32,000 bases of DNA from Candidatus Saccharimonadota bacterium (GCA_017511645.1 JAFWJH010000003.1:70297-102296), one strand, 5' to 3'. Positions 10,964 through 27,125 are shown, numbered from the stretch's first letter. Notes: generated by a model from the sequence alone, not told the origin. Program-made: numbers and translations.

Positions 10964-11200
10964 ATGTTGGAAGAATTTAAAAAGTTTCTAGATGAGGAAT
11001 TGGGCATAGACGATGATATTACATTAGAAACTAGCCTAAGAGACGATTTGATGATTGATAGCTTGGCGACTACGCAATTAGTGCTCTCACTTGAAGAAAA
11101 ATACAATATAAAAGTAGAGCAAAGCGAGCTCGCTAAACTAAAGACCGTAAAGAATTGTTTGGATTTGCTAGCGGAGAAAGGTATAGAAAGTGCCAATTGA
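10964..11200 (+). CDS. acyl carrier protein (ACP-1)
   Basis: 78 aa, acidic, with the phosphopantetheine site motif LMIDSLATTQLV. Confidence 0.8.
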   Translation: MLEEFKKFLDEELGIDDDITLETSLRDDLMIDSLATTQLVLSLEEKYNIKVEQSELAKLKTVKNCLDLLAEKGIESAN

Positions 11201-11555
11201 TAAACTGAAGAAGATTTTAGCCGATTTCGATAGTTCTGATGCAACCGAATTTGAGTACGAGGATGCCGATTTTAGAGTTTCTATAAAGAAGAATGGTCCT
11301 AAAACGGATCAAGAAAAGACTGACTATTCAGATAAACATATTTTGTCGCCGCTGGTAGGCACTTATTATGATGTATCCCCAACCATACAAATAAACGAAA
11401 GAGTTAAAGAAGGTCAGTCTTTATGTATCATTGAAAGCATGAAAATAATGAATAAAATTTGTGCACCGGCTGATTTGATTATTAGAAAAACGTATTTTGA
11501 AAACGGAGAGAGTGTAGAATTTGGCTCTAAGCTTTTTGAGGTTGATTATATATGA
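11190..11555 (+). CDS. accB: biotin carboxyl carrier protein of acetyl-CoA carboxylase
   Basis: 121 aa with a GTG start overlapping ACP-1 by 11 nt. Biotinyl-lysine motif CIIESMKIMNKI in a lipoyl/biotinyl-type C-terminal domain. Confidence 0.8.
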   Translation: MPIDKLKKILADFDSSDATEFEYEDADFRVSIKKNGPKTDQEKTDYSDKHILSPLVGTYYDVSPTIQINERVKEGQSLCIIESMKIMNKICAPADLIIRKTYFENGESVEFGSKLFEVDYI

Positions 11556-12814: not shown

Positions 12815-14436
12815 TGAGTATCCTGGATGAGCAGAAGATAAAAATAAAGAAGCGTAACGCTAGAATCTTAAATAGACCAGCCTGTTCAAACTGCGGTGAC
12901 GAATTGGACGAACTTCTAGTGTGCAAAAATTGCAAACACCATGAGAGGATGCCAGCTCTAAAAAGAATAGAAATTATACGAAAGAATGGTGGAAAATTCA
13001 AACAACTTTTAGCAGAATACGATATAGATAATTCAAGAACATATGATTATAGTGAAAAATTTGAACGGGACAAAAATCGTACCGGCCTCTCTGAATCCGT
13101 CATTGTCGGCAAATGTAAAGTAAACGGTAAAATTTTTATTACTATACTAATGGAACGATATTTTATGGTTGGTACTTTATCGAAGGCAAATGGTGAAAAA
13201 ATCGCGAAAGCCTTCGAATATGCAACAAAGAGTAATCTTCCTGTTGTGGCTTTCTGCGCTGGAGGCGGAGTGCGTATGCAAGAGGGCGCTGTGGGCTTAG
13301 TACAAATGGCGAAGATTGATGCTACTTTGATGAAATTTCGCAAAAAAGGCCTGCCGTTTATTTCTGTTTTAACGGATCCAACTTATGGCGGCACTACTGC
13401 ATCTTTTGGATTAATGGGTGATATAAATATCGCTGAGCCAAATTCCTCAATTGGGTTCGGCGGCAAGATGCTGGTGAAAGACATATTACACGAACAGGTT
13501 GCTGACGATTTTCAAAGTGCAAAATACGTGTTGAAAAGCGGCGGGCTAGACATGATTTGTGAGCGAAAAGATATATTGAATACAATTATTGAGCTTTTAG
13601 CTATACTAAACAAGAACAATTCAATTAAAGCTGAGAATGAAAAACCAGAATATGACCATGGCAATAAAAAACCAGAAATAGTTCTCCAAAATATTAGAAA
13701 CAACTCTAAAACAGTTGGAATCGATTATCTCTTTAAACTTTTTGACAACCCCATAATATTAAAAGGAGATCGAATTTCTTATGATGATCCAAGTTTACTC
13801 ACTGGACTCGGAGAAATATCTGGCATAAAAACAGCTTTCATCATCCAGAATAAAGGCAGAAATCTGAGAGAGAATATAGAGAATAATTACGGAATGACTA
13901 GACCAGAAGGCTTTAGGAAGGCCATTAGAATAGCAAAATTGGCCGAAAGGTTTCACTTGCCCGTTCTGATATTGCTCGATAGTCCTGGGGCGCATCCTGG
14001 AGATGTTGCAGAAAAGAATTGTCAAAGTATTGCCATTTCGGAAAGTATGCTCAATTTGCTGGAAACAAAAACACCAATAGTATCAATAGTGACTGGAGAA
14101 GGTTGTAGCGGTGGTGCATTGGGCTTATCGATTTCGGACGTACTCGCAATGTTTAGTGGAGCAACTTACTCCGTCATATCACCTGAATCCTATTCTGCAA
14201 TTATTTTTAATAAACCCGAAGTCCAGCCAGAATTATTAGCAAACATGAAGTTTACAGCTAAAGATTTATATAACGAGGGATTAGTTGACGAGATTCTAAA
14301 AGAAGGTACATTGGAATATAACACTTTGCAAATAGAGCGCTATTTTGCAGAGTCCTTAGTACGTTTAAGCAAATTTGATATAAAACAATTACTTGATAGA
14401 CGGTATAATAGAATAAGGAACTGGGATAAGCAATGA
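12814..14436 (+). CDS. fused acetyl-CoA carboxylase carboxyltransferase, beta (AccD) plus alpha (AccA)
   Basis: 540 aa. The N-terminal half has the AccD zinc ribbon CSNCG..CKNCKHH and ..GGGVRMQEG..ISVLTDPTYGGTTASF... The C-terminal half has AccA motifs ..NYGMTRPEGFRKA..LLDSPGAHPG..GEGCSGGAL..YSVISPE... Confidence 0.85.
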   Translation: MSILDEQKIKIKKRNARILNRPACSNCGDELDELLVCKNCKHHERMPALKRIEIIRKNGGKFKQLLAEYDIDNSRTYDYSEKFERDKNRTGLSESVIVGKCKVNGKIFITILMERYFMVGTLSKANGEKIAKAFEYATKSNLPVVAFCAGGGVRMQEGAVGLVQMAKIDATLMKFRKKGLPFISVLTDPTYGGTTASFGLMGDINIAEPNSSIGFGGKMLVKDILHEQVADDFQSAKYVLKSGGLDMICERKDILNTIIELLAILNKNNSIKAENEKPEYDHGNKKPEIVLQNIRNNSKTVGIDYLFKLFDNPIILKGDRISYDDPSLLTGLGEISGIKTAFIIQNKGRNLRENIENNYGMTRPEGFRKAIRIAKLAERFHLPVLILLDSPGAHPGDVAEKNCQSIAISESMLNLLETKTPIVSIVTGEGCSGGALGLSISDVLAMFSGATYSVISPESYSAIIFNKPEVQPELLANMKFTAKDLYNEGLVDEILKEGTLEYNTLQIERYFAESLVRLSKFDIKQLLDRRYNRIRNWDKQ

Positions 14437-15221
14437 AACGAGCGTTTATTTTTACTGGACAAGGAGAAGGACTGGGAATTCATAATCCTCAGCTAGCCAC
14501 TTTTTGGATGAGCATTGCTTTAGCGAAAATTTTAATCGCAAATGATATTAAGCCAGATGCGATAGCAGGTCTTAGCCTTGGGGAATATGCGTGTTTTGCT
14601 GTTGCGGATGTTTTTAACGTTGAAGAGCTAGAGCAAATCCTAATATTTAGGCAAAAAATAATGGATGATGCATTAAGAGGCTCAAATACTTCTATGGTGG
14701 CGTGCCTTGGTATGTCAGCAAAAGAAATTGAGAAAATGGCAACGAGGTGCGGTCTTTTTGTTACAAATTATAATTCACCTATGCAAACCGTAGTCGGAGG
14801 AGAAAAGACAAGAATAAAGGAGTTTAAGGATGCTTTCCGGCAATTTAAAAACGCATCGACAATTGATTTGCGAGTAACTGGCGCCTTCCATTCCCCATGT
14901 TTAAATAGTGCCAGCGAAAAGATGAGGAGATTTTTAGATAGCTTTTGCGAGAAAACGCCTACTATACCGATTTATTGTAACTTAACTGGCAAGAAAATAA
15001 TCAAAGATGTCAGAGGAGCGATGGTGAAGCATTTAGTGAGCCCGGTACAATTCCAAAGCATTATTGAAAATATGTTGGATGACTCAGTAGATGAATTTAT
15101 CAGCATCGGCATTGGAACTACGCCGGTAAATCTAATTCGTCAAATATGCAAAGAAAAGGGGGTTCGAGCTAGAGTAAGGAAAGTTGAGTCGCTAGAAGAT
15201 ATTGAAAGGATTATAAAATGA
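14433..15221 (+). CDS. malonyl-CoA:ACP transacylase-like acyltransferase (short FabD)
   Basis: 262 aa with FTGQGEG, the nucleophile motif GLSLGEY, a conserved Arg in ..LIFRQKIM.. and GAFHSP. It is ~45 aa shorter than E. coli FabD between the first two motifs. Confidence 0.8.
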   Translation: MKRAFIFTGQGEGLGIHNPQLATFWMSIALAKILIANDIKPDAIAGLSLGEYACFAVADVFNVEELEQILIFRQKIMDDALRGSNTSMVACLGMSAKEIEKMATRCGLFVTNYNSPMQTVVGGEKTRIKEFKDAFRQFKNASTIDLRVTGAFHSPCLNSASEKMRRFLDSFCEKTPTIPIYCNLTGKKIIKDVRGAMVKHLVSPVQFQSIIENMLDDSVDEFISIGIGTTPVNLIRQICKEKGVRARVRKVESLEDIERIIK

Positions 15222-16444
15222 GACGAGTGGTAGTAACTGGGTTAGGTGCGATTACTCCTATTGGCAATAATGCAAAAGACTTCTGGAATAGCCTAAAGTC
15301 TGGCGAAGATGGCATTAGTGTCTTAGATACGGAAGAATTCGCCGAGTCGTCCGTAAAGTTAGCGGCAACTGTCAAAGATTTAGACTTATCATCCTTGCCA
15401 AAAAGAGATACAAAATTCGATTCGAGATTTACAAATTTTGCGAGAATTGCCGGACGTGAAGCATGGAATGATTCCGGACTAGATATGGCTTTAGAAGATG
15501 CTAAGAAGGTCGGAGTTTATATTTCTACAAGCATTGGTGGACCAGAGACATTGAGTGACGGTGTTAGACAATTAGACACAAAAGGCGCAGCCAGAATTTC
15601 ACCATATTTCCTACAATCAGTTTTGCCAAATACGGCCGCAGCAAAAGTATCAATAGATTTAGGTGCTAAAGGGAGTAGTATGTGTCATGTAGCGGCCTGC
15701 GCAAGTGGTGGCATATCAATAGGTGAAGCATTTCTAAAAATCAGAGATGGAGATAATAATATTTTCGTTGCTGGAGCAGCAGATGCATCTATAACTCCAC
15801 TAACCCTCGCCGGCTTCGCCGCAATGAGGGCTATATATACTGGCGAAGACAAAAAATGCGCTTCAATTCCTTTCAATAAAAAGCGTAGTGGTTTTCTGAT
15901 AGGAGAGGGTGCTGGTGTTCTAGTTTTGGAAGAGCTATCTCACGCGCTAAAAAGAAAGGCTAAGATATATGCCGAGATTGTAGGATACGCTAATAATTCG
16001 GATGCTTTTAATATGGTATCACCAGACTACGAAGGCCTATCGAGCAAGGATGCTATGTTGGGTGCTATTGCCTGCGCCGAGATTAATCCTGACAATATCG
16101 GGTATATCAATGCGCATGGCACATCTACGATATTGGGTGACAAAACTGAAGCAAAAGCCATCCGCGAGATATGGAGTAAGGAATGTCCACCCGTGTCGTC
16201 GATTAAGTCGCAAATCGGGCACTTGCTTAGCGCTAGCGGTGCAGTAGAGGCCATAGCTACGATATTAATGCTGGGGAGCGGAATTATACCCGGTAGTACT
16301 TACAAGTTGGATCTAGAAGACGACTGTGTCTTGAATATCTCTGAAAAAGAGCGGTTGGCCAACGCTAACTATGCTCTATCTAATTCATTTGGTTTCGGTG
16401 GCCATAATGCCTGTCTGGTATTTAAGAAATGGAGCGCGCAATGA
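15218..16444 (+). CDS. fabF: beta-ketoacyl-ACP synthase II
   Basis: 408 aa with VVVTGLGAITPIGN, active-site AACASGG, HGTST, GHLLSASG and NSFGFGGHNA. Confidence 0.9.
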   Translation: MRRVVVTGLGAITPIGNNAKDFWNSLKSGEDGISVLDTEEFAESSVKLAATVKDLDLSSLPKRDTKFDSRFTNFARIAGREAWNDSGLDMALEDAKKVGVYISTSIGGPETLSDGVRQLDTKGAARISPYFLQSVLPNTAAAKVSIDLGAKGSSMCHVAACASGGISIGEAFLKIRDGDNNIFVAGAADASITPLTLAGFAAMRAIYTGEDKKCASIPFNKKRSGFLIGEGAGVLVLEELSHALKRKAKIYAEIVGYANNSDAFNMVSPDYEGLSSKDAMLGAIACAEINPDNIGYINAHGTSTILGDKTEAKAIREIWSKECPPVSSIKSQIGHLLSASGAVEAIATILMLGSGIIPGSTYKLDLEDDCVLNISEKERLANANYALSNSFGFGGHNACLVFKKWSAQ

Positions 16445-16965
16445 AAAGAATTGTTCTAGAAAGCATCAATAGCACCAATGATCATGCAGAAAAAATAGCA
16501 GACAAAACGCATGAAAATATTCTAATCATTGCAAAATCCCAAACGAATGGGCGCGGGCAGTTCGATAGGAAATGGTTTTCCGAACCAAATAAAAGTATTA
16601 CTCTTAGTTTCCTGTTGAAAAACAAAAGTGGAGACAAAAAGTTAAGGAAAGATGCTTTAGAACACATACCAGTTATCATTTCTAAAAAGCTAAATGAACT
16701 ATACGGCGTAAATTCCAAAGTGGTTTTACCGAATGATATCAAGATTAATAATAAAAAAGTCTGTGGTATTTTGATTGAGGCGCATTTTAAGGCCGATACA
16801 CTAGAATATGTCGTAGTAGGAGTAGGGATTAATCTTAATAATGATGATTTTCCGGATGACATAAAGTCGATTGCGACATCTATCAAATTAGAGATAAAAA
16901 AAGATTCAGATGCGGACATTCTCACGGATAAATTAGAGGAGGCCATAGAGGAACTATATGACTAG
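16441..16965 (+). CDS. birA: biotin-[acetyl-CoA-carboxylase] ligase, catalytic domain only
   Basis: QTNGRGQFDRKW matches the GRGRxGRxW biotin-ligase motif, and CGILIE..VVGVGINLN is present. I prefer the ATG at 16441 (ATGA overlap with fabF, GGAG upstream) over 16429. The protein is short (174 aa) and has no HTH domain. Confidence 0.75.
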   Translation: MKRIVLESINSTNDHAEKIADKTHENILIIAKSQTNGRGQFDRKWFSEPNKSITLSFLLKNKSGDKKLRKDALEHIPVIISKKLNELYGVNSKVVLPNDIKINNKKVCGILIEAHFKADTLEYVVVGVGINLNNDDFPDDIKSIATSIKLEIKKDSDADILTDKLEEAIEELYD

Positions 16966-18526
16966 GGCGAATAATTTCTCTGCGATGATTTCTGAAAGTG
17001 TCCAAAAGTATGGGCAGAAAACTTTCTTCGTCGGCGAAAATTTTTCAAAGACCTACGAAGAATTTTATAATGATATCCAAAAATTGTCAGGTTACTTTGT
17101 GGACAATAGTTTAGTTGGCAAAAAGATTGGGATTTATGCGTCTAATTCTTATAGTTGGCTACTATTATTCTTTGCCGTGGCTGCTGACGTTGGAACAATA
17201 GTGCCACTCGACAAAGAGCTGCCAGAAAAAGAGCTTGCATTATCTGCTAAGCGTATCGGTTTGGATTTCATTTTCTATGATGATTTAACGAAAGACAAAG
17301 TAAATTGTCTTCCTAAAAATATCCATGCAGAACATATAAATAAAATAGACGACATCATCAGAGAGACGCCAAATCGTAAAGTCAAAAAAACGTCGAAACG
17401 CGACTGCGCCGCACTATTTCTAACTTCCGGCACAACGTCTAAATCTAAAATCGTCATGTTATCTGAAAAAAACTTAGTTTCTTGTGCCTATTCTTCAGCC
17501 GCCGCTTTTAAGCTAAAATCCACGGATAGGTATTATACAATTTTGCCACTCCATCATACGCTTACTCTAATGTGTGCAGTGTTGGTGCCTATTACCAATG
17601 GATGCTCGATTTGTTTTAGTAAAAATATTAAAGACATGCAGAGAGAAATGTGCTTTTACCAGCCAACTGCACTCGTTGTGGTACCGAGGCTGCTCGAATA
17701 CATTATGAATAATATAAAACTCACAGCTAAGAAAAAACACAAAGAAAAGGCTCTGCAAAAACTAATTTTTATATCAAGAGGAGCGAGGCTATTACACATT
17801 GATATAAGAAAGCCCTTATTCTCTAGTATTCACGCCAGATTTGGAGGCAAGGTTCGCATGATCGCTTGTGGTGGAGCAGAGCTAGATCAAAGGGTTTTTA
17901 ACTTCCTGGACGATTTAGGATTTAATATTTACCAGGGATACGGGTTAACGGAGAGCTCACCGATTTTAACCATTCGCGGAATGTTTGTAAAAAGTAAAAT
18001 TGGCGTCGGTAGGCCGCTAAATGGCGTACATCTAAAAATAGCCAATCCAGATGCGGCTGGTATTGGAGAAATTATTGCCAAAGCTCCACAAGTTATGTTG
18101 GGTTATTATGATGATAAAAAAGCTACAGAAGATGTTTTAAAGAATGGTTGGCTCTACACGGGTGATTTAGGCAGGATAAGAAATGATGGTAATCTAGAAG
18201 TAGTTGGTAGAAAGAAAAACGTCATTGTGACCAGCAACGGTAAAAACATCTATCCAGAGGAACTAGAAACACTGATTAATTATAGCAACATAGTTAAAGA
18301 GAGCATCGTAAATGGAGTTCAAAAGAAATCCGGCTTACAAATTATCGCTACGATAGTACCAGAAGATAAAAACCGGAAAGATAAGTCTCTCGACAGCAAA
18401 ATAAGTAAACTTATTAAAGACATAAATGCAGAATTACCGGATTATAAACGTATCAATAAATACATAATCAAGAAAGATGAATTCGAGAAAACCACTACAT
18501 TAAAGATAAAGAGAGGTGGAAAGTGA
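16958..18526 (+). CDS. ANL-family AMP-dependent acyl ligase (fatty acyl-CoA/ACP ligase or OleC/LstC-like)
   Basis: 522 aa with LFLTSGTTSKSKIV, YQGYGLTES, TGDLG and GRKKNVIVTSNGKNIYPEELE. Confidence 0.85.
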   Translation: MTRANNFSAMISESVQKYGQKTFFVGENFSKTYEEFYNDIQKLSGYFVDNSLVGKKIGIYASNSYSWLLLFFAVAADVGTIVPLDKELPEKELALSAKRIGLDFIFYDDLTKDKVNCLPKNIHAEHINKIDDIIRETPNRKVKKTSKRDCAALFLTSGTTSKSKIVMLSEKNLVSCAYSSAAAFKLKSTDRYYTILPLHHTLTLMCAVLVPITNGCSICFSKNIKDMQREMCFYQPTALVVVPRLLEYIMNNIKLTAKKKHKEKALQKLIFISRGARLLHIDIRKPLFSSIHARFGGKVRMIACGGAELDQRVFNFLDDLGFNIYQGYGLTESSPILTIRGMFVKSKIGVGRPLNGVHLKIANPDAAGIGEIIAKAPQVMLGYYDDKKATEDVLKNGWLYTGDLGRIRNDGNLEVVGRKKNVIVTSNGKNIYPEELETLINYSNIVKESIVNGVQKKSGLQIIATIVPEDKNRKDKSLDSKISKLIKDINAELPDYKRINKYIIKKDEFEKTTTLKIKRGGK

Positions 18527-19665
18527 AACCAATTCGAAAAATCACAAATATAGAGCAATTATATGAGGATGTACAGAGCGCAACCAATGCATATGCAATA
18601 CAGTTCATTCTAAAAACTAGCAGCATTAAAAATAAAGATATAATTGAATGTGTAATTAGGCGAGTAATAAAAGAATGCCCAGAATTTAATGTCTATCTAA
18701 GAAGGGGTAAATTTTATCCACAGCAGCATCCAATCAGTATCCAAGATATTAAAATCAAGGATTCTATTGTCTATAGTCTAGATTTATTTAATCAAAAAAT
18801 AGATCTAATTAGCCACTCAATGGAAGTCTATCTTGTGAAGGCGCCCAAGAGCGATTATTTAGTGTTTCGATTCGCCCATTCGGCAATGGACGGAAAGAGT
18901 GCCCTTCTTTTTATGCAAAACATTGTAAATCTACTAGGCGGGAAAAAGCCACTAAAATGCAAAAAAGCTATCTCCGAGAAAGATTTCTTAAAGAAACTAG
19001 ACTACTACAAGAAGAAAGAACCAAAATTACCCCGAATTATCCATGACGAAGCGTCGATTATCAAACAATACACGACAAGGTGGCAAGTCGTACAATTAGA
19101 CAAGTATGTTTCGGGTATTATAGCCAAACTTTCGTGCCTTTTAGCTCGGGAATTTGAAAGCGACCGGATAAGAGTAATGGTGCCTGTAGATTTAAGACGT
19201 CACGACGGCAACAATCCATATATAGGCAATCTGACCTTGCCAGTTTTTCTAGATGTAGATAAGAGCGATAGTTATACCAAGATTAATGGTGAGCTGTTGT
19301 ATAGCTTGAAGAACAGCAAAGAGTTAAACATCGGCAATACTTTGAACAATTATTATTGTCGTATGCCAAGTTTGTTGCGAAAGACGGGCGTAAAAATTGG
19401 ATGCATGGCAAGTCGACACTACAATAAATTTTCCGTCGGCGCCGTCATATCGCATTTAGGCAGAATAGATTTAAATGAATATTCCAATAAATATTTTAAA
19501 GCTAAAGATTTCGTAGACTTATCAATACAACAACCTCTAGGTGCATTCTCGATAGTTATAGTAGAATGTTCCCATAAGACAAATATCAGTATAGGTTACT
19601 ACGGAGATCAATTCACTGAAGAATATATGAAGTCTCTCATAAAAAAGATAGAGAGGTTAGCATGA
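18523..19665 (+). CDS. condensation/acyltransferase-like protein with HxxxDG motif
   Basis: 380 aa with a GTG start in a GTGA overlap. FRFAHSAMDGKS fits the HxxxDG catalytic motif of C-domain, WS/DGAT and PapA-type acyltransferases. The rest is not recognisable by eye. Confidence 0.45.
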   Translation: MKPIRKITNIEQLYEDVQSATNAYAIQFILKTSSIKNKDIIECVIRRVIKECPEFNVYLRRGKFYPQQHPISIQDIKIKDSIVYSLDLFNQKIDLISHSMEVYLVKAPKSDYLVFRFAHSAMDGKSALLFMQNIVNLLGGKKPLKCKKAISEKDFLKKLDYYKKKEPKLPRIIHDEASIIKQYTTRWQVVQLDKYVSGIIAKLSCLLAREFESDRIRVMVPVDLRRHDGNNPYIGNLTLPVFLDVDKSDSYTKINGELLYSLKNSKELNIGNTLNNYYCRMPSLLRKTGVKIGCMASRHYNKFSVGAVISHLGRIDLNEYSNKYFKAKDFVDLSIQQPLGAFSIVIVECSHKTNISIGYYGDQFTEEYMKSLIKKIERLA

Positions 19666-20081
19666 AAAGTCAAAATTGCCGAGTCGTTAATGGGCTAGTA
19701 ATTCATCACATAGGAGTTGCCACCAATAATTTAGATGAATTAACGGACGAATATCTGCGGGATGGTTATCAAATTACAAACGAGGTCTATGACCCCGGAC
19801 AAAAGGCTAAGTTGCGGTTACTTAGTAAGGATAATCAAAACAGCATAGAGCTAATATATACAGATAATCCAGAATCGCGAGTTTTCAATTTGTCACACAA
19901 CAACTATAAGAAAGAATACCACACCTGTTTTAAAATAAACAATCTTGATCGCGCCATTAAAGTATTCAAAAAAGATGGCTATTCTTTAATCACTAATATT
20001 GAAATAGCTAAATTGTTCAATGGCAGGATATGCTTTATGTACAAGAGCGGTAAACTAATAGAATTAATGGAGGAAATATGA
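19662..20081 (+). CDS. VOC (glyoxalase/bleomycin-resistance/dioxygenase) family protein, methylmalonyl-CoA epimerase-like
   Basis: 139 aa with two beta-alpha-beta-beta-beta half-modules: ..IHHIGVATNNLDE.. and ..YHTCFKINNLDRAIKVFKKDGY...ELMEE. Confidence 0.6.
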   Translation: MKSQNCRVVNGLVIHHIGVATNNLDELTDEYLRDGYQITNEVYDPGQKAKLRLLSKDNQNSIELIYTDNPESRVFNLSHNNYKKEYHTCFKINNLDRAIKVFKKDGYSLITNIEIAKLFNGRICFMYKSGKLIELMEEI

Positions 20082-21649
20082 AAAAGATTTACTGTTATCG
20101 TGATACCGCAATTGAATACTTATTCAAAGACGTAGAAACTATATCGTATAGCGCATATGGTGATATTAAACTATTGAACGACGACACAGATATAATGATT
20201 TTCTATATGCTACCATATGATTATTCTATTAAAGATTTAGTGTCGACGATTAATAGCTATTTTGAACGAGCGAAATACATCATAAACAATTATCCAAATA
20301 GGACAATATTTGCAATAACCCTACATAATTATTTTTACGAATCATTCGTTTTCGGAAATAATGAATTAGAGAAAGCTATTAACTCATATAATGAATATCT
20401 ATATAGCCAGAAAAATGTCAGGGTTATAGATATAGCGCCATTTTATAATAATCATAACGACGTATTTAACCCAAAGTATTATTACTTATATAATGCAATA
20501 ATAAACCCGTCTCTTGCGAAAGATTTTCGGCGTTTTATTTTAGATAAGATGGCGCTGTTTCGAGGAACTCGAAAAAAATGCCTAATCCTAGATTTAGATA
20601 ATACTTTGTGGGGTGGTATTCTGGGTGAAGACGGATTGGCAAATTTACAAATCAGCGGCTCCTATCCAGGCAATTGTTTTCATAGTTTTCAACAAATGGT
20701 TTTGGAGCTAAAAAATCAAGGTATTCTGCTAGGGATTTGCAGCAAAAATAACTATAATGATGTAGTCCTGTGCTTCGAAAAAAGAGATGATTTGGTATTG
20801 TCTCTGGATGATTTTGCTGCCAAAAAGATAAATTGGTCAGAAAAAAGACTTAATATTTCTGAATTAGCCAAGGAACTGAATATTGGTTTAGATAGCATTG
20901 TTTTTATAGATGATAGCCCAGCAGAAAGAGAAAACGTAAAAGCATTGGATGGGGTCACAGTCTTAGACTTCCCAGATTCGCCCTATAAAATGGTTGGGCA
21001 CTTCGCCAAAGATTTTTATAGATATTTCGGAACATATCTACTAACAGAAGACGACGTAAATAAAAATATTTACTATAAACATAAAACGGAAAGTGAAGAG
21101 TTGAGAAGCAGAGTCGAAAACGAGGATGAGTTTATAAAAAAATTGAAAATCAAAATAGCCTACGAGACCATAGACGACAATAATAGCGACAGAATCGCTC
21201 AACTGATCAATAAAACGAATCAGTTCAATTTAACAACTAGGCGTTACGATAAAACCGAATTAGCTAATATGACTGACGCGCTAATAATAGCAATAAAAGT
21301 AAGCGATAAATTCGGAGATCTTGGCCTTACCGGAGTTGCAATAGTTAGAAAAAACAAAGAAGAAGCAACTATAGATACATTTTTAATGAGTTGCAGAATA
21401 TTAGGCAGAAAAATTGAGCGAGAGTTTCTAAAAATCGTATTAAATGAACTAAAAATATTAGGGGTTAAAACGGTCATAGGCGAGTACATAGATAGCAAAA
21501 AGAACGAGCAGACTAAAACATTCTATAGTGATAATGGATTTCGAAAAGTTCCAAATCATTCTCGTGAGGTTCAGCGTTTCAAATACACGCTAACTAAACC
21601 GTTGAAGTATAATAATAATTACATAGTGGAGAAAAAAGATGGAAAATAG
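20078..21649 (+). CDS. FkbH-like HAD-IIIC family protein
   Basis: 523 aa. HAD motif I in CLILDLDNTLWGGILGEDG, then ..GICSKNN.. and ..VFIDDSPAERE... The C-terminal domain has ..FLMSCRILGRKIEREFL.., typical of FkbH-like proteins. Confidence 0.8.
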   Translation: MKKIYCYRDTAIEYLFKDVETISYSAYGDIKLLNDDTDIMIFYMLPYDYSIKDLVSTINSYFERAKYIINNYPNRTIFAITLHNYFYESFVFGNNELEKAINSYNEYLYSQKNVRVIDIAPFYNNHNDVFNPKYYYLYNAIINPSLAKDFRRFILDKMALFRGTRKKCLILDLDNTLWGGILGEDGLANLQISGSYPGNCFHSFQQMVLELKNQGILLGICSKNNYNDVVLCFEKRDDLVLSLDDFAAKKINWSEKRLNISELAKELNIGLDSIVFIDDSPAERENVKALDGVTVLDFPDSPYKMVGHFAKDFYRYFGTYLLTEDDVNKNIYYKHKTESEELRSRVENEDEFIKKLKIKIAYETIDDNNSDRIAQLINKTNQFNLTTRRYDKTELANMTDALIIAIKVSDKFGDLGLTGVAIVRKNKEEATIDTFLMSCRILGRKIEREFLKIVLNELKILGVKTVIGEYIDSKKNEQTKTFYSDNGFRKVPNHSREVQRFKYTLTKPLKYNNNYIVEKKDGK

Positions 21650-21854
21650 AATAAAAGAAATAATGGAACAGACATTTAGGCAAAGTATAAACGACAACTT
21701 CTCTAAAAATGATACTGACAAATGGGACTCGTTTACTCATTTAGATCTGATTGTAAAATTAGAACAGGAGTTTAAAATTTCTTTTTCACCAGAAGAGATA
21801 GGAAGCATTGAATCTTATAATGATATAAAAAAGATTATTAAGAGTAAGTTCTAA
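21639..21854 (+). CDS. acyl carrier protein (ACP-2), partner of the FkbH-like protein
   Basis: 71 aa with the site motif KWDSFTHLDLIVKLE. It overlaps the FkbH-like gene by 11 nt. Confidence 0.7.
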   Translation: MENRIKEIMEQTFRQSINDNFSKNDTDKWDSFTHLDLIVKLEQEFKISFSPEEIGSIESYNDIKKIIKSKF

Positions 21855-21857
21855 AAG

Positions 21858-22379
21858 ATGAAAGTCTACATAACGCGAATTAAAAACGGAGATCGTAAAA
21901 CATTATCTAGCCAAATATTGAAATATTCATATAGAGATACATATGGCAGAAATATAAATATTGCAAAAATTCACAAAGGCGAATACGGGAAACCCTATTA
22001 TGACAATAATTTCTACTATAATATCAGCCATTCCAAAAATTTTCTTTGTATAGCGACGGACGAAAACGAGATTGGAATAGATATAGAAGAGTCGCGGTCT
22101 GTCAACTCCAATCTTTCGAAAAGGATTCTGGCAAAAGATGAGGATGTCATCGATGAAGACATTTTAAATAATTGGGTGATTAAGGAAGCTTACAGTAAAT
22201 ATCTAGGTCTCGGTCTTAATGTTGATTTTCGCGATATATCTACAAGCGATATTATGGGGCATGAAAATGTCACCAATTTATCTACGAACGACTATGTTTG
22301 TTTTGTTATTTCAAAAAAACCATCAGATATTAAGGTAACTTACCTAAAAGAAGAGGATTTAGTCAAAGCTGGTTGTTGA
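21858..22379 (+). CDS. Sfp-type 4'-phosphopantetheinyl transferase (short)
   Basis: 173 aa with GKPYY..YYNISHSKNF..IGIDIEE.. and WVIKEAYSKYLGLG. Confidence 0.8.
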   Translation: MKVYITRIKNGDRKTLSSQILKYSYRDTYGRNINIAKIHKGEYGKPYYDNNFYYNISHSKNFLCIATDENEIGIDIEESRSVNSNLSKRILAKDEDVIDEDILNNWVIKEAYSKYLGLGLNVDFRDISTSDIMGHENVTNLSTNDYVCFVISKKPSDIKVTYLKEEDLVKAGC

Positions 22380-22545
22380 TAAAAGCATTCAATGCTTCTC
22401 TAATCCCACATCCTGGGCAAATCTTGGTTTTGTTGTCCTTGCGCGATAGCGCAGGGTAATCTAAATAATATTTTCCGCATTCAGGGCATTTATGGCCCTC
22501 CTGAGCGGCTTTTAAGTCAGAGTAGGGTGTTTTACCGTATTTCAT
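22363..22545 (-). CDS. small zinc-ribbon protein, unknown function
   Basis: 60 aa with CPECG..(19 aa)..CPGCG. ATGA-type overlap with the upstream minus-strand ORF. Its 3' end overlaps the PPTase gene by 17 nt, convergently. Confidence 0.5.
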   Translation of the reverse strand: MKYGKTPYSDLKAAQEGHKCPECGKYYLDYPALSRKDNKTKICPGCGIREALNAFINNQL

Positions 22546-22841
22546 AAATCCACCGAGCAGACACGCGTTAAACCGAATTTATGCCCCAATTCCTCCCACA
22601 TACTATCGGGCGCATCCTCTTCCAGGACTCGCCAGACCGGGTAATTATAGTCGAGCATAATTTTTGCAACATCTTTTGGATCCACCATTAGTTGGCAATA
22701 GTAGCCAGCTGTAGTTTCGCCTTCAATTATAATTGGATCATTTTCTTCAGTCTTTAATACTTCTTCCAAGTACTTATATTCGACCGCAATAGCTTCATTT
22801 ACGAGCTTAACGGCAGGTGCTAATTTATCATCTTTTTCCAT
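22542..22841 (-). CDS. hypothetical acidic protein
   Basis: I prefer the internal Met (MEKDDKL.., 99 aa) because the longer ORF-track start at 22892 runs through A/T-rich promoter-like sequence. No family recognised. Confidence 0.45.
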   Translation of the reverse strand: MEKDDKLAPAVKLVNEAIAVEYKYLEEVLKTEENDPIIIEGETTAGYYCQLMVDPKDVAKIMLDYNYPVWRVLEEDAPDSMWEELGHKFGLTRVCSVDL

Positions 22842-22898
22842 AATGTTTGTATTTAACCTTATTCTGTAAATTTTACAAGTCAAAAAAAACAAATAACG

Positions 22899-22976
22899 TG
22901 CTATAATAGAATCAGCTTCGAGTTAGAGATGCTCTCGGAGCCCAAGCAATGCGGCAGTAGAATGCTCGCATTTTTT
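22899..22976 (+). ncRNA. candidate small transcript or attenuator: extended -10, two hairpins, intrinsic terminator
   Basis: TGCTATAAT lies at 22899-22907. Hairpin 1 is GCTTCGAG/CTCGGAGC (22915-22941). Hairpin 2 is AATGCGGCA-gtagaa-TGCtCGCATT, followed by TTTTTTATTT (22948-22980). No ORF lies between promoter and terminator. Confidence 0.3.
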
Positions 22977-23051
22977 ATTTATACACGCGTTTATCAAATT
23001 GCGGGATAAATTGCGTCACTAAAGCCTAAGAGGCTACGCAAGGAGTTCTTT

Positions 23052-23192
23052 ATGGACGAAGACAAAGAAGCGTCCACGGCTATCGCCAGTCTGTTTAACG
23101 TTCTGAAAAACATTAAAGTCACGCCAGAACGCATAGCACAAAATCAATGGAAATCGGTGGGCAAAAATGGCGAAGTTGAATTTTACTATTAA
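23052..23192 (+). CDS. small hypothetical protein (46 aa) upstream of the recombinase
   Basis: Not in the ORF track (under 60 aa). AAGGAG lies 6 nt upstream of the ATG. Translation: MDEDKEASTAIASLFNVLKNIKVTPERIAQNQWKSVGKNGEVEFYY. A strong hairpin follows. Confidence 0.4.
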   Translation: MDEDKEASTAIASLFNVLKNIKVTPERIAQNQWKSVGKNGEVEFYY

Positions 23193-23215
23193 AACAAATA
23201 TAATTCACAAAATCT

Positions 23216-23250
23216 AAAATCTCTAGTCAAAAGGCTAGAGATTTTTATAT
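23216..23250 (+). terminator. hairpin terminator after the small ORF
   Basis: AAAATCTCTAG-tcaaaagg-CTAGAGATTTT, an 11-bp stem, followed by TATAT. Confidence 0.55.
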
Positions 23251-23282
23251 TAAGCGGCCGCCTAGCATTTCCACCTCTGTTA

Positions 23283-23291
23283 TGATATAAT
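23283..23291 (+). promoter_or_regulatory. extended -10 TGATATAAT giving a leaderless recombinase mRNA
   Basis: Exact TGATATAAT. Only 7 nt separate the -10 from the ATG at 23299, and there is no SD. Confidence 0.45.
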
Positions 23292-23298
23292 AAAATCA

Positions 23299-24963
23299 AT
23301 GAAAAGCAAATCAATTGTGGCAATAAAAACCGATATAGACGAGCAGCCATTGCTTCGCTATGTCCTTTATGCACGCAAATCCTCTGAAGATGTCGGCGCA
23401 CAAGCTAAATCTCTTCCTGATCAGATTAAAGATTGCTTAGCTTATGCAGAAACTCATGGCTTGGTCGTCGTGGATATTTTAAAAGAGTCTCATTCGGCTA
23501 AAATCTCCGGGCGTCGACCGATATTTTCCAAAATGCTAAAAGATCTTGAGGTCGGCAAGTATGACGGCATTCTTACCTGGCACCCAGACCGCCTTGCGAG
23601 AAATTCACTCGAAGCCGGAATGATTGTCGACATGGTAGATAACGGCGTAATCAAAGACCTTAAATTTCCGATGTTTAATTTTACGAATGACTCAAATGCA
23701 AAACTACTCCTTAACATCGTTTTTGCAATGTCCAAGCAATATTCAGAACATTTAAGCGAGAGTGTCCAACGCGGCGTCAACTCTAACCTCGCCCAAGGAA
23801 AATCTGGCGGTATGCCAAAATGGGGCTATAACCGCGACGAAGTAACAGGGTTTTATGAACCAGACCAGAATTTCGACATCATTAGGCGAGGATTCGATAT
23901 GTACCTTGAAGGTTATAGCCAAAGAGATATTATTGATTTCTGGCGACAAAACGATGTTCATCGTATGACGAAAATTAATCGTAAAAACAAAAATAAACGA
24001 AAAATTACCGTATATAACAGCGTCTCGGTTCTTGGTACGATCTTAAGTGATCCATTTTATTATGGTATCCTTGTCCAGGGCGGGCAGAGGGTAGATTTAC
24101 GTGAAATATTACCAGATTTCAAGCCGATGATAACTGAAGAGGAGTTCGGATTAATTCAAGCAAAACGTAGGAAGCTCAAAAAAGTTGTCTCTGCTTCCGT
24201 AAAAGCCGAAGAAGGTAAAGTATTTATCCCATTCCGTCAGATGGTAAAATGTGGTGAATGTGGTAATTTTATGCACGTAGCACGCTCAAAATCACGTACT
24301 GGTAAGAAATATCTCTACTTCCGCTGCGGAAATCCGGAATGCAGCAGAAAACAAAAAAGCGTTCGCGCGCAAGTAGTTTTAGATGCTTTATATAGGACGC
24401 TTGATAACCTACGTTTCACGAAAAGAGACATTTCAAAAATCCAAAATAGTTTAACGAATTATATAAACGTTCGCCATAACGAGCTGACTACGGAGAAACT
24501 TCGCGTCAATGCGGCCATAAAAGCCAAGAAGCGTCGCCAAGATGAATTGGCTCAGGCTTTCATTGATCTCGGCAAAGATGCGCCAAAAGAGGCTAAACAG
24601 ATGGTGAGTGAACAGCTTGAAGAATGCCGGAACGATATAGCAACTTTGCAGACTGAGCGTGATGAGATTGAAGCTAAAATCTTCGATCCAGACCAAGTTC
24701 GCGAAATTCTGGATGAGCTTACGAACCAGCTGGATTCCATCGGTGACAAGATGAAATCTGGCGATTCCTGGCAAAAAGACCAGTTGGCCCGAAATATGCT
24801 TGCGAACCTAGAAATTTCCAATAAAAATGAGGTTTCTTTCAGATGGAAGAAACCTCTAAAGCACATATTTAGCAATGCTTCAACCGAAGAATTTCGGCCT
24901 GGTGCGCGCGACTGGACTCGAACCAGCACAGCCGTAAATGTGGCCACTACCACCTCAAGGTAG
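23299..24963 (+). CDS. large serine recombinase (integrase)
   Basis: 554 aa. The N-terminal resolvase domain has YARKSSED (catalytic Ser region) and ..HPDRLARN..SESVQRG... It also has a recombinase domain, the zinc ribbon CGECG..FRCGNPEC and a coiled-coil region. The last 64 nt overlap tRNA-Leu antisense. Confidence 0.9.
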   Translation: MKSKSIVAIKTDIDEQPLLRYVLYARKSSEDVGAQAKSLPDQIKDCLAYAETHGLVVVDILKESHSAKISGRRPIFSKMLKDLEVGKYDGILTWHPDRLARNSLEAGMIVDMVDNGVIKDLKFPMFNFTNDSNAKLLLNIVFAMSKQYSEHLSESVQRGVNSNLAQGKSGGMPKWGYNRDEVTGFYEPDQNFDIIRRGFDMYLEGYSQRDIIDFWRQNDVHRMTKINRKNKNKRKITVYNSVSVLGTILSDPFYYGILVQGGQRVDLREILPDFKPMITEEEFGLIQAKRRKLKKVVSASVKAEEGKVFIPFRQMVKCGECGNFMHVARSKSRTGKKYLYFRCGNPECSRKQKSVRAQVVLDALYRTLDNLRFTKRDISKIQNSLTNYINVRHNELTTEKLRVNAAIKAKKRRQDELAQAFIDLGKDAPKEAKQMVSEQLEECRNDIATLQTERDEIEAKIFDPDQVREILDELTNQLDSIGDKMKSGDSWQKDQLARNMLANLEISNKNEVSFRWKKPLKHIFSNASTEEFRPGARDWTRTSTAVNVATTTSR

Positions 24964-24990
24964 CGTGTCTACCAATTCCACCACGCGCGC
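24900..24990 (-). tRNA. tRNA-Leu (anticodon GAG), class II with long variable arm, CCA encoded
   Basis: The reverse complement GCGCGCG-TG-GTGGAATTGGTAGACAC-G-CTACC-TTGAGGT-GGTAG-(variable arm)-GCTGG-TTCGAGT-CCAGT-CGCGCGC-A-CCA folds by hand into a cloverleaf with a perfect 7-bp acceptor stem. Confidence 0.9.
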
Positions 24991-25092: not shown

Positions 25093-26136
25093 ATGAAGAA
25101 AACTTTTACTAAGTTTGCAGTGGTCGTAGTGCTAGGAATGTTGATATTGTCTGGCATAGTAATACCAGTAGGATTAACCTATGCCGAAGAGGATGAGGGG
25201 ACTGGGGGCGATACCATTGGTACAAGTATTAGTATTTCTCCAGTAAGCAAGGTTTTGCAGTTGAGCGCTAATTCGACCTACGATGACGTATTGAGCGTCA
25301 CCAATGACGGCAGTGAGAAAATCAGATTTGAGGTTTATGCGGCACCATATTCATATGTATATTCAGAGGAAAACGACACCTATACACTCGGGTTTAGCAA
25401 AGAAAGCGACTATACCCAAATTGCACGATGGATTAGCATAAAGGATAGAAACGAAAATTACACCACTAAGCCAATATTTACTGCTGAGCCAGGTGAAACG
25501 GTGGAGGTATCTTACCGAGTAACTACCCCGAGTAGCATACCAGATGGTGGTCAGTATGCAGTGTTGTTCGCACACACTTTATCGGATCCGTCCGACACTA
25601 GCGGTATTAAAACCGAAGCCAGCCCTGGCATGGTGATTTATGGTAGATCCGATGGCGAAACGATTATCGCTTCTGAAATCTCTAATATGCAGATTAATCA
25701 AACCATCACTAGAGATACCGAAGTAGAAGAAAATGGTCAAACCGTTACTAAAGAAATGACACTGAATAATATCAATGCTTCGGCAAAAGTAAAAAATACC
25801 GGTAATCTAGATTTTAATGCGCACGGCGTATTAAGAGTGGAGGGGATACTAGGCGGAACATACTACGAGACACCCGAAAACGAGTCGCGGATCTCGGTGA
25901 TACCAGAAGCAGAGCTAACCCTGTCAGACGAATGGGAAGAAACGCCAGGCTTTGGTCTATACAGAGTAACCTGGACAGTAACAGCTGGCGATAAAACCGA
26001 AACTAACGAAATGGTATTATGCCTGATACCGCCATCCGTAATAATTATTAGCATAATCTTGTTGACAATCATAATTGTATGGATTATAATGGCCGTAAGG
26101 AGGCGCAGAGAACGCCGTTCTAGGTTTGCCGTCTAG
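25093..26136 (+). CDS. secreted, C-terminally membrane-anchored surface protein (possibly DUF916/DUF3324-like)
   Basis: 347 aa. It has an N-terminal signal-like helix, a beta-rich Thr/Ser/Glu ectodomain, and a C-terminal TM helix followed by RRRRERRSR. Confidence 0.65.
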   Translation: MKKTFTKFAVVVVLGMLILSGIVIPVGLTYAEEDEGTGGDTIGTSISISPVSKVLQLSANSTYDDVLSVTNDGSEKIRFEVYAAPYSYVYSEENDTYTLGFSKESDYTQIARWISIKDRNENYTTKPIFTAEPGETVEVSYRVTTPSSIPDGGQYAVLFAHTLSDPSDTSGIKTEASPGMVIYGRSDGETIIASEISNMQINQTITRDTEVEENGQTVTKEMTLNNINASAKVKNTGNLDFNAHGVLRVEGILGGTYYETPENESRISVIPEAELTLSDEWEETPGFGLYRVTWTVTAGDKTETNEMVLCLIPPSVIIISIILLTIIIVWIIMAVRRRRERRSRFAV

Positions 26137-26186
26137 ACACGAGTTGCGCAACCAAAATAAAAACTAAAAATAAAAGAGTGTAGAGC

Positions 26187-27125
26187 ATGAAAAAGACAAA
26201 AAAACGCGTGTTTGGTCTAGTAGGGCTTGGTCTAGTAGCTATCACCACAATCTTTGCAGCATCTTTGCCTGGGCCGGAAGCTGCAGCTATAGAGTCAGAC
26301 CAAGCGACTGACACCATAGTGGTGCGAGTAGTAGGGGCTGATCCGCTAATAGAAATTACTAGCAGCCAAGACGGCAAAGAATTGGTTCAGCAGGAACAAA
26401 TTTTTAGTTTTAAATATTACAATTCAGAATATATTGACTCAAAAATACTCTATACTAATGACGAAGACGTAAAGACTGAGCATATTTTAATTGAAGGTGA
26501 AGAGCGTTATGTAAAATATCACGATGGCGAATACGTAACAGTCCCTGCTTTAGACTTGCTTAGCGATGGTTATGGCTACGGCGAATACGTGGTAGAATCT
26601 GTCGCTACAGGATATGCTGGCGTAACTTACCCAAAAACGATTAGCTTTTCTTTTATCCCAGTAAAAGGCGAGGCGGCGGAAGATCCTAACGACGGATTGA
26701 TCTATTTACATCTTGATTACGACACTGAAAATGAAAATATAGATCATATCAAAATTAATGTCTACGATGAAAGTGGCAATATTGTAAAAGTGATTTCTCC
26801 GATTGTAGTAGTAACGCCAGGGATGAAAGTGGAGCTACCGTTTTCGGAAAATGATCTACCAACTGGAAATTACACGATAGGAATTACTGCTTATAATGCT
26901 GAGGATGAATTGCTATACGGTAAACCGTACTATACTAGCGTATACTATGAGGCGATCCCAGTGCCAGACACGGGTGGGATGTTCACTGGAATGAATATTT
27001 CAAAGACAGATTATTTGGTAACTGGATTGATTGTATTCTCACTGACGGCGATACTTGGGTTTGTATTTGTGGCAAGGGGAAGAAATAATGAAAGTAGACT
27101 AACAATAAAAAAGAGACGCCGCTAG
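26187..27125 (+). CDS. surface protein with LPXTG-like (VPDTG) sorting signal
   Basis: 312 aa. It has a signal peptide and an acidic ectodomain. The C-terminus is ..IPVPDTGG.., then a hydrophobic stretch, then RGRNNESRLTIKKRRR. Confidence 0.6.
   Translation: MKKTKKRVFGLVGLGLVAITTIFAASLPGPEAAAIESDQATDTIVVRVVGADPLIEITSSQDGKELVQQEQIFSFKYYNSEYIDSKILYTNDEDVKTEHILIEGEERYVKYHDGEYVTVPALDLLSDGYGYGEYVVESVATGYAGVTYPKTISFSFIPVKGEAAEDPNDGLIYLHLDYDTENENIDHIKINVYDESGNIVKVISPIVVVTPGMKVELPFSENDLPTGNYTIGITAYNAEDELLYGKPYYTSVYYEAIPVPDTGGMFTGMNISKTDYLVTGLIVFSLTAILGFVFVARGRNNESRLTIKKRRR

Follow-up and report, generated by a model that had tools for sequence, protein, structure and literature searches.

FkbH-family enzymes are known from methoxymalonyl- and hydroxymalonyl-ACP pathways (FkbH, OzmB, ZmaN), where a HAD-IIIC domain and an acyltransferase domain with the cysteine of an SCR motif are accompanied by a stand-alone acyl carrier protein (ACP), and from tetronate pathways, for which a five-gene set has been defined (PMC7489565). 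FkbH-like/ACP modules are also found in glycan and protein-glycosylation loci. Here we analyze a trio of genes encoding an FkbH-family protein, a carrier protein and a phosphopantetheinyl transferase in a 32,000-nt stretch of DNA (GCA_017511645.1, JAFWJH010000003.1:70297-102296), hereafter the window; all coordinates are positions in this whole stretch. Judging by the flanking core proteins, which are annotated so in NCBI, the host is a member of Candidatus Saccharibacteria, a tiny parasitic bacterium of the candidate phyla radiation (CPR). The locus represents known FkbH/ACP chemistry in a new variant, in an unexpected host and genetic setting. We suggest, with a probability of about 0.5, that the trio is the glycerate-supply arm of a lipid-type operon, in which a free-standing condensation (C) domain of the nonribosomal peptide synthetase (NRPS) type would join glycerate to a fatty chain, and we expect an acyl-glycerate-type lipid or glycolipid as the product. 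The genes of the arm are:

18523-19665, plus strand: free-standing NRPS C domain, as predicted from its fold, 380 aa, HSAMDG motif; first gene of the variable arm
19662-20081, plus strand: VOC metalloenzyme, similar to glyoxalase I and methylmalonyl-CoA epimerase; conserved partner of FkbH-ACP pairs
20078-21649, plus strand: FkbH-family enzyme, 523 aa, with an N-terminal extension (residues 1-165), a HAD-IIIC phosphatase domain and a C-terminal GNAT-fold acyltransferase domain with Cys439
21639-21854, plus strand: ACP2, dedicated carrier protein, 71 aa, W-D-S31, recognized by alignment with FkbH-adjacent carrier proteins
21858-22379, plus strand: Sfp-type 4'-phosphopantetheinyl transferase (PPTase), 173 aa, Pfam ACPS with E 2.7e-8

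Comparison with described FkbH loci

The window FkbH shares 27-28% identity and all catalytic columns with ZmaN and a Streptomyces FkbH, but FkbH, OzmB and ZmaN are shorter (~340-360 aa) and lack the 165-aa N-terminal extension. In the methoxymalonyl systems, the dehydrogenases FkbI and FkbK and the methyltransferase FkbG follow, feeding a modular polyketide synthase. As an initial annotation of this DNA had noted, FkbG/I/K-like proteins are absent among the window proteins scanned, which also include no 2-oxoacid-dehydrogenase E2 acyltransferase and no alpha/beta hydrolase.

The tetronate sets (RkD/E/F of RK-682, Agg1-5 of agglomerin, Mad7/8/16-18 of tetromadurin) have, like the window, a long-form FkbH with the N-terminal extension and an ACP, sometimes followed by a PPTase as here, and derive the acyl donor from an activated fatty acid and malonyl units. 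However, the window has no ketoacyl-ACP synthase III (KAS III) of the tetronate type, no Agg4-like E2 acyltransferase and no Agg5-like hydrolase, the latter two being optional in RK-682-type pathways, and its FkbH is 26-31% identical to FkbHs from tetronate-type loci and falls in a different clade.

The nearest relatives are the FkbH-like/ACP modules of glycan and protein-glycosylation loci (BF1531 with the structure 3slr, cj1302, and modules of Marinifilum and S. meliloti), which are 39-41% identical to the window FkbH and share with it the ~525-aa arrangement of N-terminal extension, HAD and GNAT domains, a W-D-S carrier protein, 45% identical to ACP2 in the closest of these relatives, and a recurrent VOC protein. 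The gene content of such loci varies: FkbH, ACP and an AAC(3)-like N-acyltransferase within a Wza/Wzz/flippase locus in Marinifilum; FkbH, ACP, VOC, an uncharacterized protein and an AAC(3)-like protein in L008; VOC, MBOAT, ACP and FkbH in S. meliloti; VOC, ACP and FkbH in C. perfringens. The acyl group there presumably passes to the AAC(3)-like or MBOAT transferases, whereas the partner in the window is an NRPS-type C domain amid fatty-acyl and malonyl machinery. The initial annotation had held that membership in this polysaccharide-modifying HAD-IIIC subgroup would speak against glyceryl transfer to ACP2. The closest outside relatives indeed belong there, yet they are always paired with a small ACP, so this nearness is no argument against ACP2 loading.

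The same relatives do raise the question whether VOC, FkbH and ACP2 could supply a glyceroyl group for the decoration of a cell-surface sugar or a glycoprotein. The flagellar glycosylation locus of C. jejuni, where pseudaminic acid modified with dimethylglyceric acid occurs, contains the fkbH-domain gene cj1302; N-glyceroyl pseudaminic acid is known in Tannerella, glyceroyl and dimethylglyceroyl groups occur on bacterial nonulosonic acids, and the window does encode a GT4 glycosyltransferase. The biochemical role of the glycan-locus FkbH genes is not described in the literature searched. We consider glycan decoration rather improbable. Genes for a flippase, a polymerase, export, a priming transferase, sugar nucleotides or an AAC(3)/MBOAT transferase are missing from the window; acyl-chain functions take up two-thirds of the operon, the arm has a C domain as its linked transferase, and the GT4 best matches a glycolipid synthase.

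The FkbH protein and its partners

Membership of the 523-aa protein in the FkbH family follows from its match to NCBIfam TIGR01686 ('FkbH domain'), with 270.4 bits at a cut-off of 146.65 (E 2e-80); TIGR01681 (HAD-IIIC) was matched at 64.8 bits. Pfam gave no match for FkbH, ACP2 or the 380-aa C protein, so that NCBIfam and structure prediction were needed. The gene span in the initial annotation, the 11-nt overlap of the FkbH-like and ACP genes and the PPTase gene following them are exactly as given there, and the two FkbH motifs that it named are present, DLDNTLWGG at residues 172-180 and SCRILGR at residues 438-444.

The catalytic Asp and Cys residues, on which that annotation made its assignment depend, were placed in a joint alignment of 11 sequences comprising ZmaN, an FkbH encoded near FkbI/J/K-like genes, three FkbHs from tetronate-type loci, and glycan-locus FkbHs. 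The references came from annotated plasmids: ZmaN from the zwittermicin cluster of B. thuringiensis pBMB422, a Streptomyces FkbH beside FkbK-, FkbJ- and FkbI-like genes (L010), two Streptomyces RK-682-like loci (L011, L012) with the order fatty acyl-AMP ligase (FAAL), acyl-CoA dehydrogenase, ACP, ketosynthase, KAS III, FkbH, ACP, PPTase, and a Pseudalkalibacillus tetronate-type locus (L013) with KAS III, FkbH, ACP and an E2 acyltransferase. Invariant columns include D172/D174/T176, S222, K256, D278/D279, the TNQFN motif and S438-C439-R440; the latter and the other catalytic columns are also invariant across 33 closer homologues. In work on OzmB, the conserved cysteine is reportedly the carrier of the glyceryl group.

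The AlphaFold (AF2) model of FkbH (pLDDT 90) has three parts. The N-terminal alpha/beta domain and the HAD domain jointly match 3slr (Bacteroides BF1531), the only solved relative, with E 1e-22, and the C-terminal domain has a GNAT fold carrying Cys439. Some FkbH-like proteins have a 'NEX' extension equivalent to the N-terminal part, and this extension has been suggested to aid the transfer of glycerate onto carrier proteins (PMC12304814). In a neighbour-joining tree, the island FkbHs form their own clade (87% bootstrap), while the tetronate-locus FkbHs form a separate one together with an MBOAT-linked FkbH of S. meliloti (100% bootstrap).

ACP2 matched ACP profiles below the threshold only, but it aligns with carrier proteins adjoining FkbH genes elsewhere, and its Ser31 is invariant. 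The PPTase carries all Sfp-type motifs (GKP, YNISHS, GIDIE, WVIKEAYSK). Given these features of the proteins, a glyceryl-ACP branch is likely.

A VOC gene also adjoins FkbH/ACP genes in L003, L004, L006, L008, L021, L023 and L024. The VOC protein of the window aligns over its full length with 3hdp and 2qh0, deposited structures annotated as glyoxalase I, and the structure alignment points to H16, E63, H87 and E135 as putative metal ligands. Methylmalonyl-CoA epimerase and glyoxalase I both act via an enolate or enediolate next to a thioester. We found no account of the role of this partner in the literature searched, and it represents a conserved, so far unexplained companion of FkbH-ACP pairs in several phyla. 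VOC genes with FkbH-like/ACP pairs occur in Alphaproteobacteria, Clostridia and a further genome (L023 1303-7188; L024 4676-6957; L008 10001-12262), and the VOC-FkbH-ACP sets combine with differing transferases (MBOAT, AAC(3)-like). In a more distant variant (L022 8838-12959), an ANL ligase, a stand-alone C, FkbH, ACP2 and GT4 are encoded one after another, and VOC and PPTase are both missing; the two are therefore dispensable accessories in some lineages.

The condensation domain and the exchangeable arm

Profiles gave no family match for the protein encoded at 18523-19665. Its AF2 model (pLDDT 88) was matched by Foldseek to NRPS C, epimerization (E) and heterocyclization (Cy) domains, including starter C domains (E ~1e-17, TM 0.53-0.71), with the C-like dehydratase AzeD at the top, and H119/D123/G124 are invariant. 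On the strength of the modelled two-lobed fold and the HxxxDG motif, the protein belongs to the NRPS condensation-domain superfamily. An Agg4-type E2 acyltransferase was considered as a candidate and rejected, as all fold matches were to this superfamily. Hence, the HxxxD protein pointed out in the initial annotation is real, but its likeness to the acylating enzyme of tetronate maturation does not hold, the fold being that of an NRPS C domain and an Agg4/Agg5 pair being absent from the window proteins scanned. The C fold and HxxxDG are shared with ClbN-like lipo-initiation modules, which consist of a starter C domain, an Asn-specific adenylation (A) domain and a thiolation (T) domain; unlike these, the window C stands alone, with no A or T domain. 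C-type enzymes that form esters or act in trans include SgcC5 and PapA5-type enzymes.

The origin of the stand-alone C can be traced by comparison with a sister island in another Saccharibacteria contig (L015 and L003). The nucleotide identity of the window to this contig changes along the sequence:

37-2112: core genes, 70%
3045-5573: island left end, 93%
5574-6800: GT4, absent in the sister
6801-18602: short-chain dehydrogenase/reductase (SDR) to ANL ligase, 95%
18856-21836: C, VOC, FkbH, ACP2, 65-67%
21964-24927: rightward from within the PPTase gene, 93%

The recombination breakpoints in window 18602-21964 are sharp, and the right one lies within the PPTase gene, near 21964. As identity drops to 65-67% between blocks of 93-95% on both sides, C-VOC-FkbH-ACP2 is a recombined, divergent allele in an otherwise near-identical island. 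The arm of the sister consists of a C-A(Asn-like)-T protein, VOC, FkbH, ACP2 and a second C-like gene (C2). The window C is 54% identical to the N-terminal third (C1) of the 955-aa C-A-T protein and 23% identical to C2, which follows ACP2; from these identities, it appears to be the C domain left over from a C-A-T module. The C-A-T module of the sister resembles N-acyl-Asn lipo-initiation modules such as ClbN, and its A domain scores as an amino-acid adenylation domain. Two Bacilli loci have the ten-residue code DLTKIGEVGK; in the Saccharibacteria sister, it reads DLTKVIEVGK, and we take both to be asparagine codes. The positions were read against a PheA reference fragment, which reproduces the published DAWTIAAICK positions. 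C-A-T proteins of 955-963 aa are encoded in L003 (6745-9612), L004 (6746-9619) and L006 (6716-9607). The exchange of arms between sister islands suggests that the acyl part is common and that the polar head varies.

A C-like gene is found beside or near the FkbH-ACP2 pair in every island variant examined, and the C domain is the best candidate to acylate glyceryl-ACP2. There is a precedent for an ester-forming C domain, BurF (PMC12304814).

The absence of the A-T portion and of the second C gene might also be read as decay, with the window holding a remnant of a C-A-T/C2 cluster in which FkbH and ACP2 no longer feed a product; the loss of the PPTase and recombinase in a related metagenome-assembled genome (MAG), L014, fits with that. 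Still, we consider it extremely unlikely. Stand-alone 380-aa versions of C, 63-99% identical, occur in many independent contigs with conserved gene order, and a 42%-identical one precedes FkbH-ACP2-GT4 in the L022 lineage; together with the dN/dS of 0.12 for the C domain, this means that the stand-alone C is no fresh deletion. All reading frames are intact with clean 4-nt overlaps, and so are the catalytic residues. Relative to a 79%-identical relative, dN/dS is 0.02-0.12 for the genes with computable dS, whereas for FkbH, ACP2 and PPTase dS is saturated and dN, at 0.16-0.28, is far below it. These genes are under purifying selection.

The arm belongs to an unbroken run of 18 plus-strand genes (5634-22379 in the open reading frame (ORF) map), most of which overlap by 4 nt, as at the ANL/C, C/VOC and VOC/FkbH junctions; the FkbH/ACP2 overlap of 11 nt reads ATGGAAAATAG. 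Judging by these overlaps, the genes of the operon are translationally coupled. Promoter and terminator scans yielded matches at chance level and do not bear on where the operon starts or stops.

Predicted acyl supply, glycosyltransferase and the KAS III cassette

The rest of the run, all on the plus strand, encodes the following proteins:

5634-6782, plus strand: GT4 glycosyltransferase (Pfam Glycos_transf_1/Glyco_transf_4), nearest to lipid glycosyltransferases
6947-7990, plus strand: extended SDR, OleD-like (2-alkyl-3-oxoalkanoate reductase-like), 205 bits, below the cut-off; cassette gene
7965-8759, plus strand: hydrolase of the metallo-beta-lactamase (MBL) fold, lactonase/thioesterase-like by profile matches; cassette gene
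8756-10033, plus strand: F390-synthetase-related adenylate-forming enzyme, TIGR02304, 537.6 bits at a cut-off of 251.9; cassette gene
10030-10962, plus strand: KAS III with intact Cys96/His238/Asn266, not of the tetronate-locus type; cassette gene
10964-11200, plus strand: ACP1 with the canonical DSL serine, Pfam PP-binding with E 2e-10
11190-14436, plus strand: acetyl-CoA carboxylase (ACC), consisting of the biotin carboxyl carrier protein (BCCP, 11190-11555) with the biotinyl-lysine motif SMKI, biotin carboxylase (11552-12814) and a fused AccD-AccA carboxyltransferase (12814-14436)
14433-15221, plus strand: FabD-like malonyl transacylase, by profiles and alignment, with an internal deletion of ~42 aa; Ser, Arg and His are kept
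15218-16444, plus strand: FabF-type KAS II with Cys161/His300/His335, NF005589, 445 bits at a cut-off of 387
16429-16965, plus strand: biotin-protein ligase (BirA catalytic domain), TIGR00121, 128.8 bits at a cut-off of 83.1
16958-18526, plus strand: ANL acyl-CoA/ACP ligase, 96% identical to that of the sister island; last gene of the highly conserved left block

Thus, the neighbours listed in the initial annotation (KAS III, ACP1, the three ACC components, FabD, FabF, the BirA-like ligase and the ANL ligase) are real, and the active sites of FabF, FabD, KAS III and BCCP are intact. PDB matches did not separate the subtype of the ANL enzyme among FAAL, acyl-CoA ligase and acyl-ACP ligase. FabD is under purifying selection despite its deletion (dN/dS 0.12). 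We rejected an N-terminal truncation, which a profile match starting at position 60 might indicate, as the alignment, with E. coli FabD as a reference, shows an internal deletion with the active-site residues kept. The deletion of ~42 aa is seen in FabD from the Saccharibacteria islands relative to that of Bacilli MAGs and E. coli, and GLSLG replaces GHSLG.

The best NCBIfam match of the GT4 is alpha-monoglucosyldiacylglycerol (MGlcDAG) synthase (215 bits, full length), followed by other lipid glycosyltransferases and BshA (98 bits). L022, an independent variant, encodes a 68%-identical GT4 immediately behind ACP2.

The genes at 6947-10962 form a cassette of their own. Its four proteins are each 31-44% identical to counterparts in a B. 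mycoides plasmid and an E. coli island (L019 6035-11338; L020 7185-11272), with 33-39% for the SDR. The E. coli cassette lies between narI and purU with PAP2, sterol-desaturase and acyl-CoA-desaturase genes, and is present in 674 of 5426 complete genomes; neither it nor the B. mycoides copy is accompanied by FkbH. The combination of KAS III, OleD-like SDR, adenylate-forming enzyme and hydrolase is shared with OleABCD- and PqsABCDE-like cassettes, but compared to Ole, the KAS III is closer to FabH and CorB than to OleA, the adenylating enzyme is PaaK/F390-like rather than OleC-like, and the hydrolase has the MBL fold. No study of the function of such a KAS III/SDR/MBL/F390-like cassette was found in the literature searched.

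These properties of the KAS III bear on the canonical tetronate route, in which the FabH-like enzyme of the window would condense a beta-ketoacyl thioester with glyceryl-ACP2 to yield a 3-acyl-tetronate, as do RkD, Agg1 and Mad16. FkbH, its dedicated ACP and the PPTase are indeed ordered as in the Streptomyces RK-682-like loci L011 and L012, and the presence of KAS III, FabF, FabD and ACC with no ketoreductase (KR), dehydratase (DH) or enoylreductase (ER) makes a beta-ketoacyl donor plausible. However, the KAS III is only 23% (L013, 66 bits) and 21% (L011, 45 bits) identical to tetronate-type KAS III, compared to 131-139 bits for solved structures of true FabH and 130-133 bits for the pyrone-forming CorB and MxnB. 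It keeps His238 in a P-H-Q motif where the tetronate-locus enzymes have P-P-Q, it belongs to a four-gene cassette found without FkbH in E. coli and Bacillus, and it lies 9 kb from FkbH, in a block recombining independently of the FkbH arm. In addition, the FkbH is outside the tetronate-locus clade, and the window proteins scanned include no Agg4/Agg5 homologues. We therefore regard the canonical route as very unlikely. The initial annotation had led the glyceryl-ACP branch either to a tetronate or to an acyl-glycerate; the evidence favours the latter, while the type of the KAS III and the clade of the FkbH speak against the former, and against the window KAS III as a tetronate-forming enzyme.

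Predicted pathway

We propose the following sequence of reactions, modelled on related enzymes. The Sfp-type PPTase of the island would convert ACP1 and ACP2 to their holo forms. FkbH would take 1,3-bisphosphoglycerate from glycolysis, its HAD domain, with Asp172 as the nucleophile, would remove the 3-phosphate, and the glyceryl group would be held on Cys439 and then passed to the phosphopantetheine of ACP2, as in characterized FkbH enzymes. The VOC protein, given its family and its linkage to FkbH-ACP pairs, may act on the alpha-hydroxy thioester, most simply by epimerization at C2. On the acyl side, ACC, BirA and FabD would make malonyl-ACP1, the ANL ligase would activate a scavenged fatty acid, and FabF and KAS III would extend the chain by C2 units. 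Because there is no KR/DH/ER set, the chain would stay 3-oxo, or become 3-hydroxy through the OleD-like SDR. The free-standing C domain would then couple the acyl chain to a hydroxyl of glyceryl-S-ACP2, yielding an acyl-glyceryl thioester, which may be released by hydrolysis, possibly by the MBL-fold enzyme, and the GT4, similar to glycolipid synthases, may glycosylate the product.

We also considered a complete type II fatty acid synthase that would restore fatty-acid synthesis, and rejected it for the window, as FabG, FabZ/A and FabI/K/L/V are absent from the window and it holds condensing, loading and carboxylating enzymes only.

Several observations weigh against the acyl-glycerate pathway. 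For all members of the island family, activity and product are predicted from genes, and the arm has no obvious release enzyme. The window C is an orthologue of C1 and not of C2 (54% vs. 23% identity), and its acceptor therefore may not be glyceryl-ACP2; it could equally take glyceryl-ACP2 as the donor and a free nucleophile as the acceptor. The deeper nodes of the FkbH tree are weakly supported. The GT4 score of 215 bits is under the curated cut-off of 400, and the gene is absent from the closest sister island. Finally, in L014, a third genome with the island, the PPTase is missing along with two small ORFs and most of the recombinase (L014 11600-12021 vs. window 21686-24570).

If the C domain does form an ester, the product might still be cyclic. 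In a non-canonical tetronate or butenolide route, C would esterify the 2-hydroxyl of glyceryl-S-ACP2 with a beta-ketoacyl chain, and the ring would be closed either by a Dieckmann reaction, giving a 3-acyl-5-hydroxymethyl-tetronate, or by reduction and Knoevenagel condensation, giving a butenolide; the compound would be a small signal or antibiotic rather than a lipid. The presence of condensing enzymes only, with no KR/DH/ER in the cluster, and of a free-standing C domain are consistent with that, and there is a precedent in malleicyprol, where an ester formed by a C domain is converted to a butenolide by reductive Knoevenagel closure (PMC12304814). Moreover, the SDR is weakly similar to thioester reductases (TIGR01746, 62 bits), and the MBL protein resembles lactonases. 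On the other hand, the SDR best matches OleD-type reductases and is part of a separate cassette, no cyclase is evident, and the arm is linked to a GT4 resembling lipid glycosyltransferases; in addition, the sister islands insert an Asn-like module, where cyclization of a beta-keto ester would not apply. A cyclized tetronate or butenolide made via the C domain is thus possible, though in our view unlikely, and the canonical FabH-type route is not supported.

The acyl-glycerate pathway would be of interest in view of the host, as CPR bacteria including Saccharibacteria have been reported to lack membrane-lipid synthesis and to obtain lipids from their bacterial hosts (PMC10939385). The island encodes its own malonyl-CoA supply (ACC and biotin ligase), two ketosynthases, a PPTase for its two carrier proteins, a predicted glycerate loader, and, in addition, a condensation enzyme and a glycosyltransferase of the glycolipid type. 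If a scavenged fatty acid and a glycolytic intermediate are made into a surface or signalling lipid in this way, this would bear directly on how these episymbionts build or decorate their envelope and interact with their hosts. A wider version, which we hold to be doubtful, is that Saccharibacteria obtain, by horizontal exchange of this island, a carrier-protein-templated route to an amphiphile with a glycerate backbone. Its head would be set by the swappable arm: a sugar added by the MGlcDAG-synthase-like GT4 here, and an Asn-like residue added by C-A-T and C2 in the sisters. If true, it would represent a lipid-assembly logic unlike the glycerol-3-phosphate/PlsXYC pathway and a variable surface lipid in an episymbiont. 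For enzymology, the island offers an FkbH/ACP/VOC module coupled to a stand-alone C domain, and the swapped arms represent a natural experiment, sugar versus Asn-like residue.

The island and its boundaries

The core genes flanking the operon encode SecG, a family-5 solute-binding protein (Pfam SBP_bac_5), L31, S2, EF-Ts, RRF, UppS and RseP, and the cluster of the window S2 protein includes Ca. Nanosyncoccus alces. The GC content is 0.41-0.44 in the flanks and 0.32-0.40 in the operon. The elements delimiting the island and its left-end gene pair are:

3047-3055, no strand: left end of the island, marked by the 9-nt direct repeat TGGTGCGCG, which copies the 3' end of tRNA-Leu
3920-5510, minus strand: toxin-antitoxin pair at the island left end, AbiEii toxin (3920-4909; PF08843, E 6e-40) and DUF6088 partner (4911-5510; PF19570, E 7e-29)
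23299-24963, plus strand: large serine recombinase of the island (Pfam Resolvase, Recombinase, Zn_ribbon_recom)
24900-24990, minus strand: tRNA-Leu(GAG), the integration site; its 3' end (24900-24908) is the right repeat copy

The 9-nt repeat by itself lacks statistical significance (BLAST E 2.3), but its left copy coincides with the jump from 70% to 93% identity to the sister contig (window 3045). As the repeat, the tRNA-Leu end and the identity breakpoint agree, we place the island at ~3047-24908 (~22 kb). A recombinase at a tRNA gene, a repeat at the far end, atypical GC content and identity above that of the core are all found here, as in tRNA-targeted integrative islands. The 3' end of the recombinase ORF is overlapped by tRNA-Leu(GAG) on the opposite strand. 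The AbiEii/DUF6088 pair is also present in the sister island, where the AbiEii gene is shorter (247 aa).

In the third genome, the Saccharibacteria MAG L014, identity is 98% over window 10078-21685 and 66-80% in the core genes. An island that is 93-98% identical between species with 66-80% core identity is therefore being exchanged and kept. A search of genome contigs with the FkbH protein returned one locus, in a Saccharibacteria MAG other than that of the window, and related clusters are also present in uncultured 'Bacilli' MAGs. The literature searched (FkbH-like/HAD-IIIC; Saccharibacteria with FabF or biosynthetic gene clusters) contained no description of such an island. The missing PPTase of L014 raises the question of how the carrier proteins there are activated.

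Five ORFs have no Pfam family: 2230-2964, 3358-3798, 25093-26136, 26187-27125 and, on the minus strand, 22542-22892. ORF 2230-2964 is absent from the sister contig. The region 25093-27125 appears to be core rather than island, and its first part aligns with L014 at 67% nucleotide identity.

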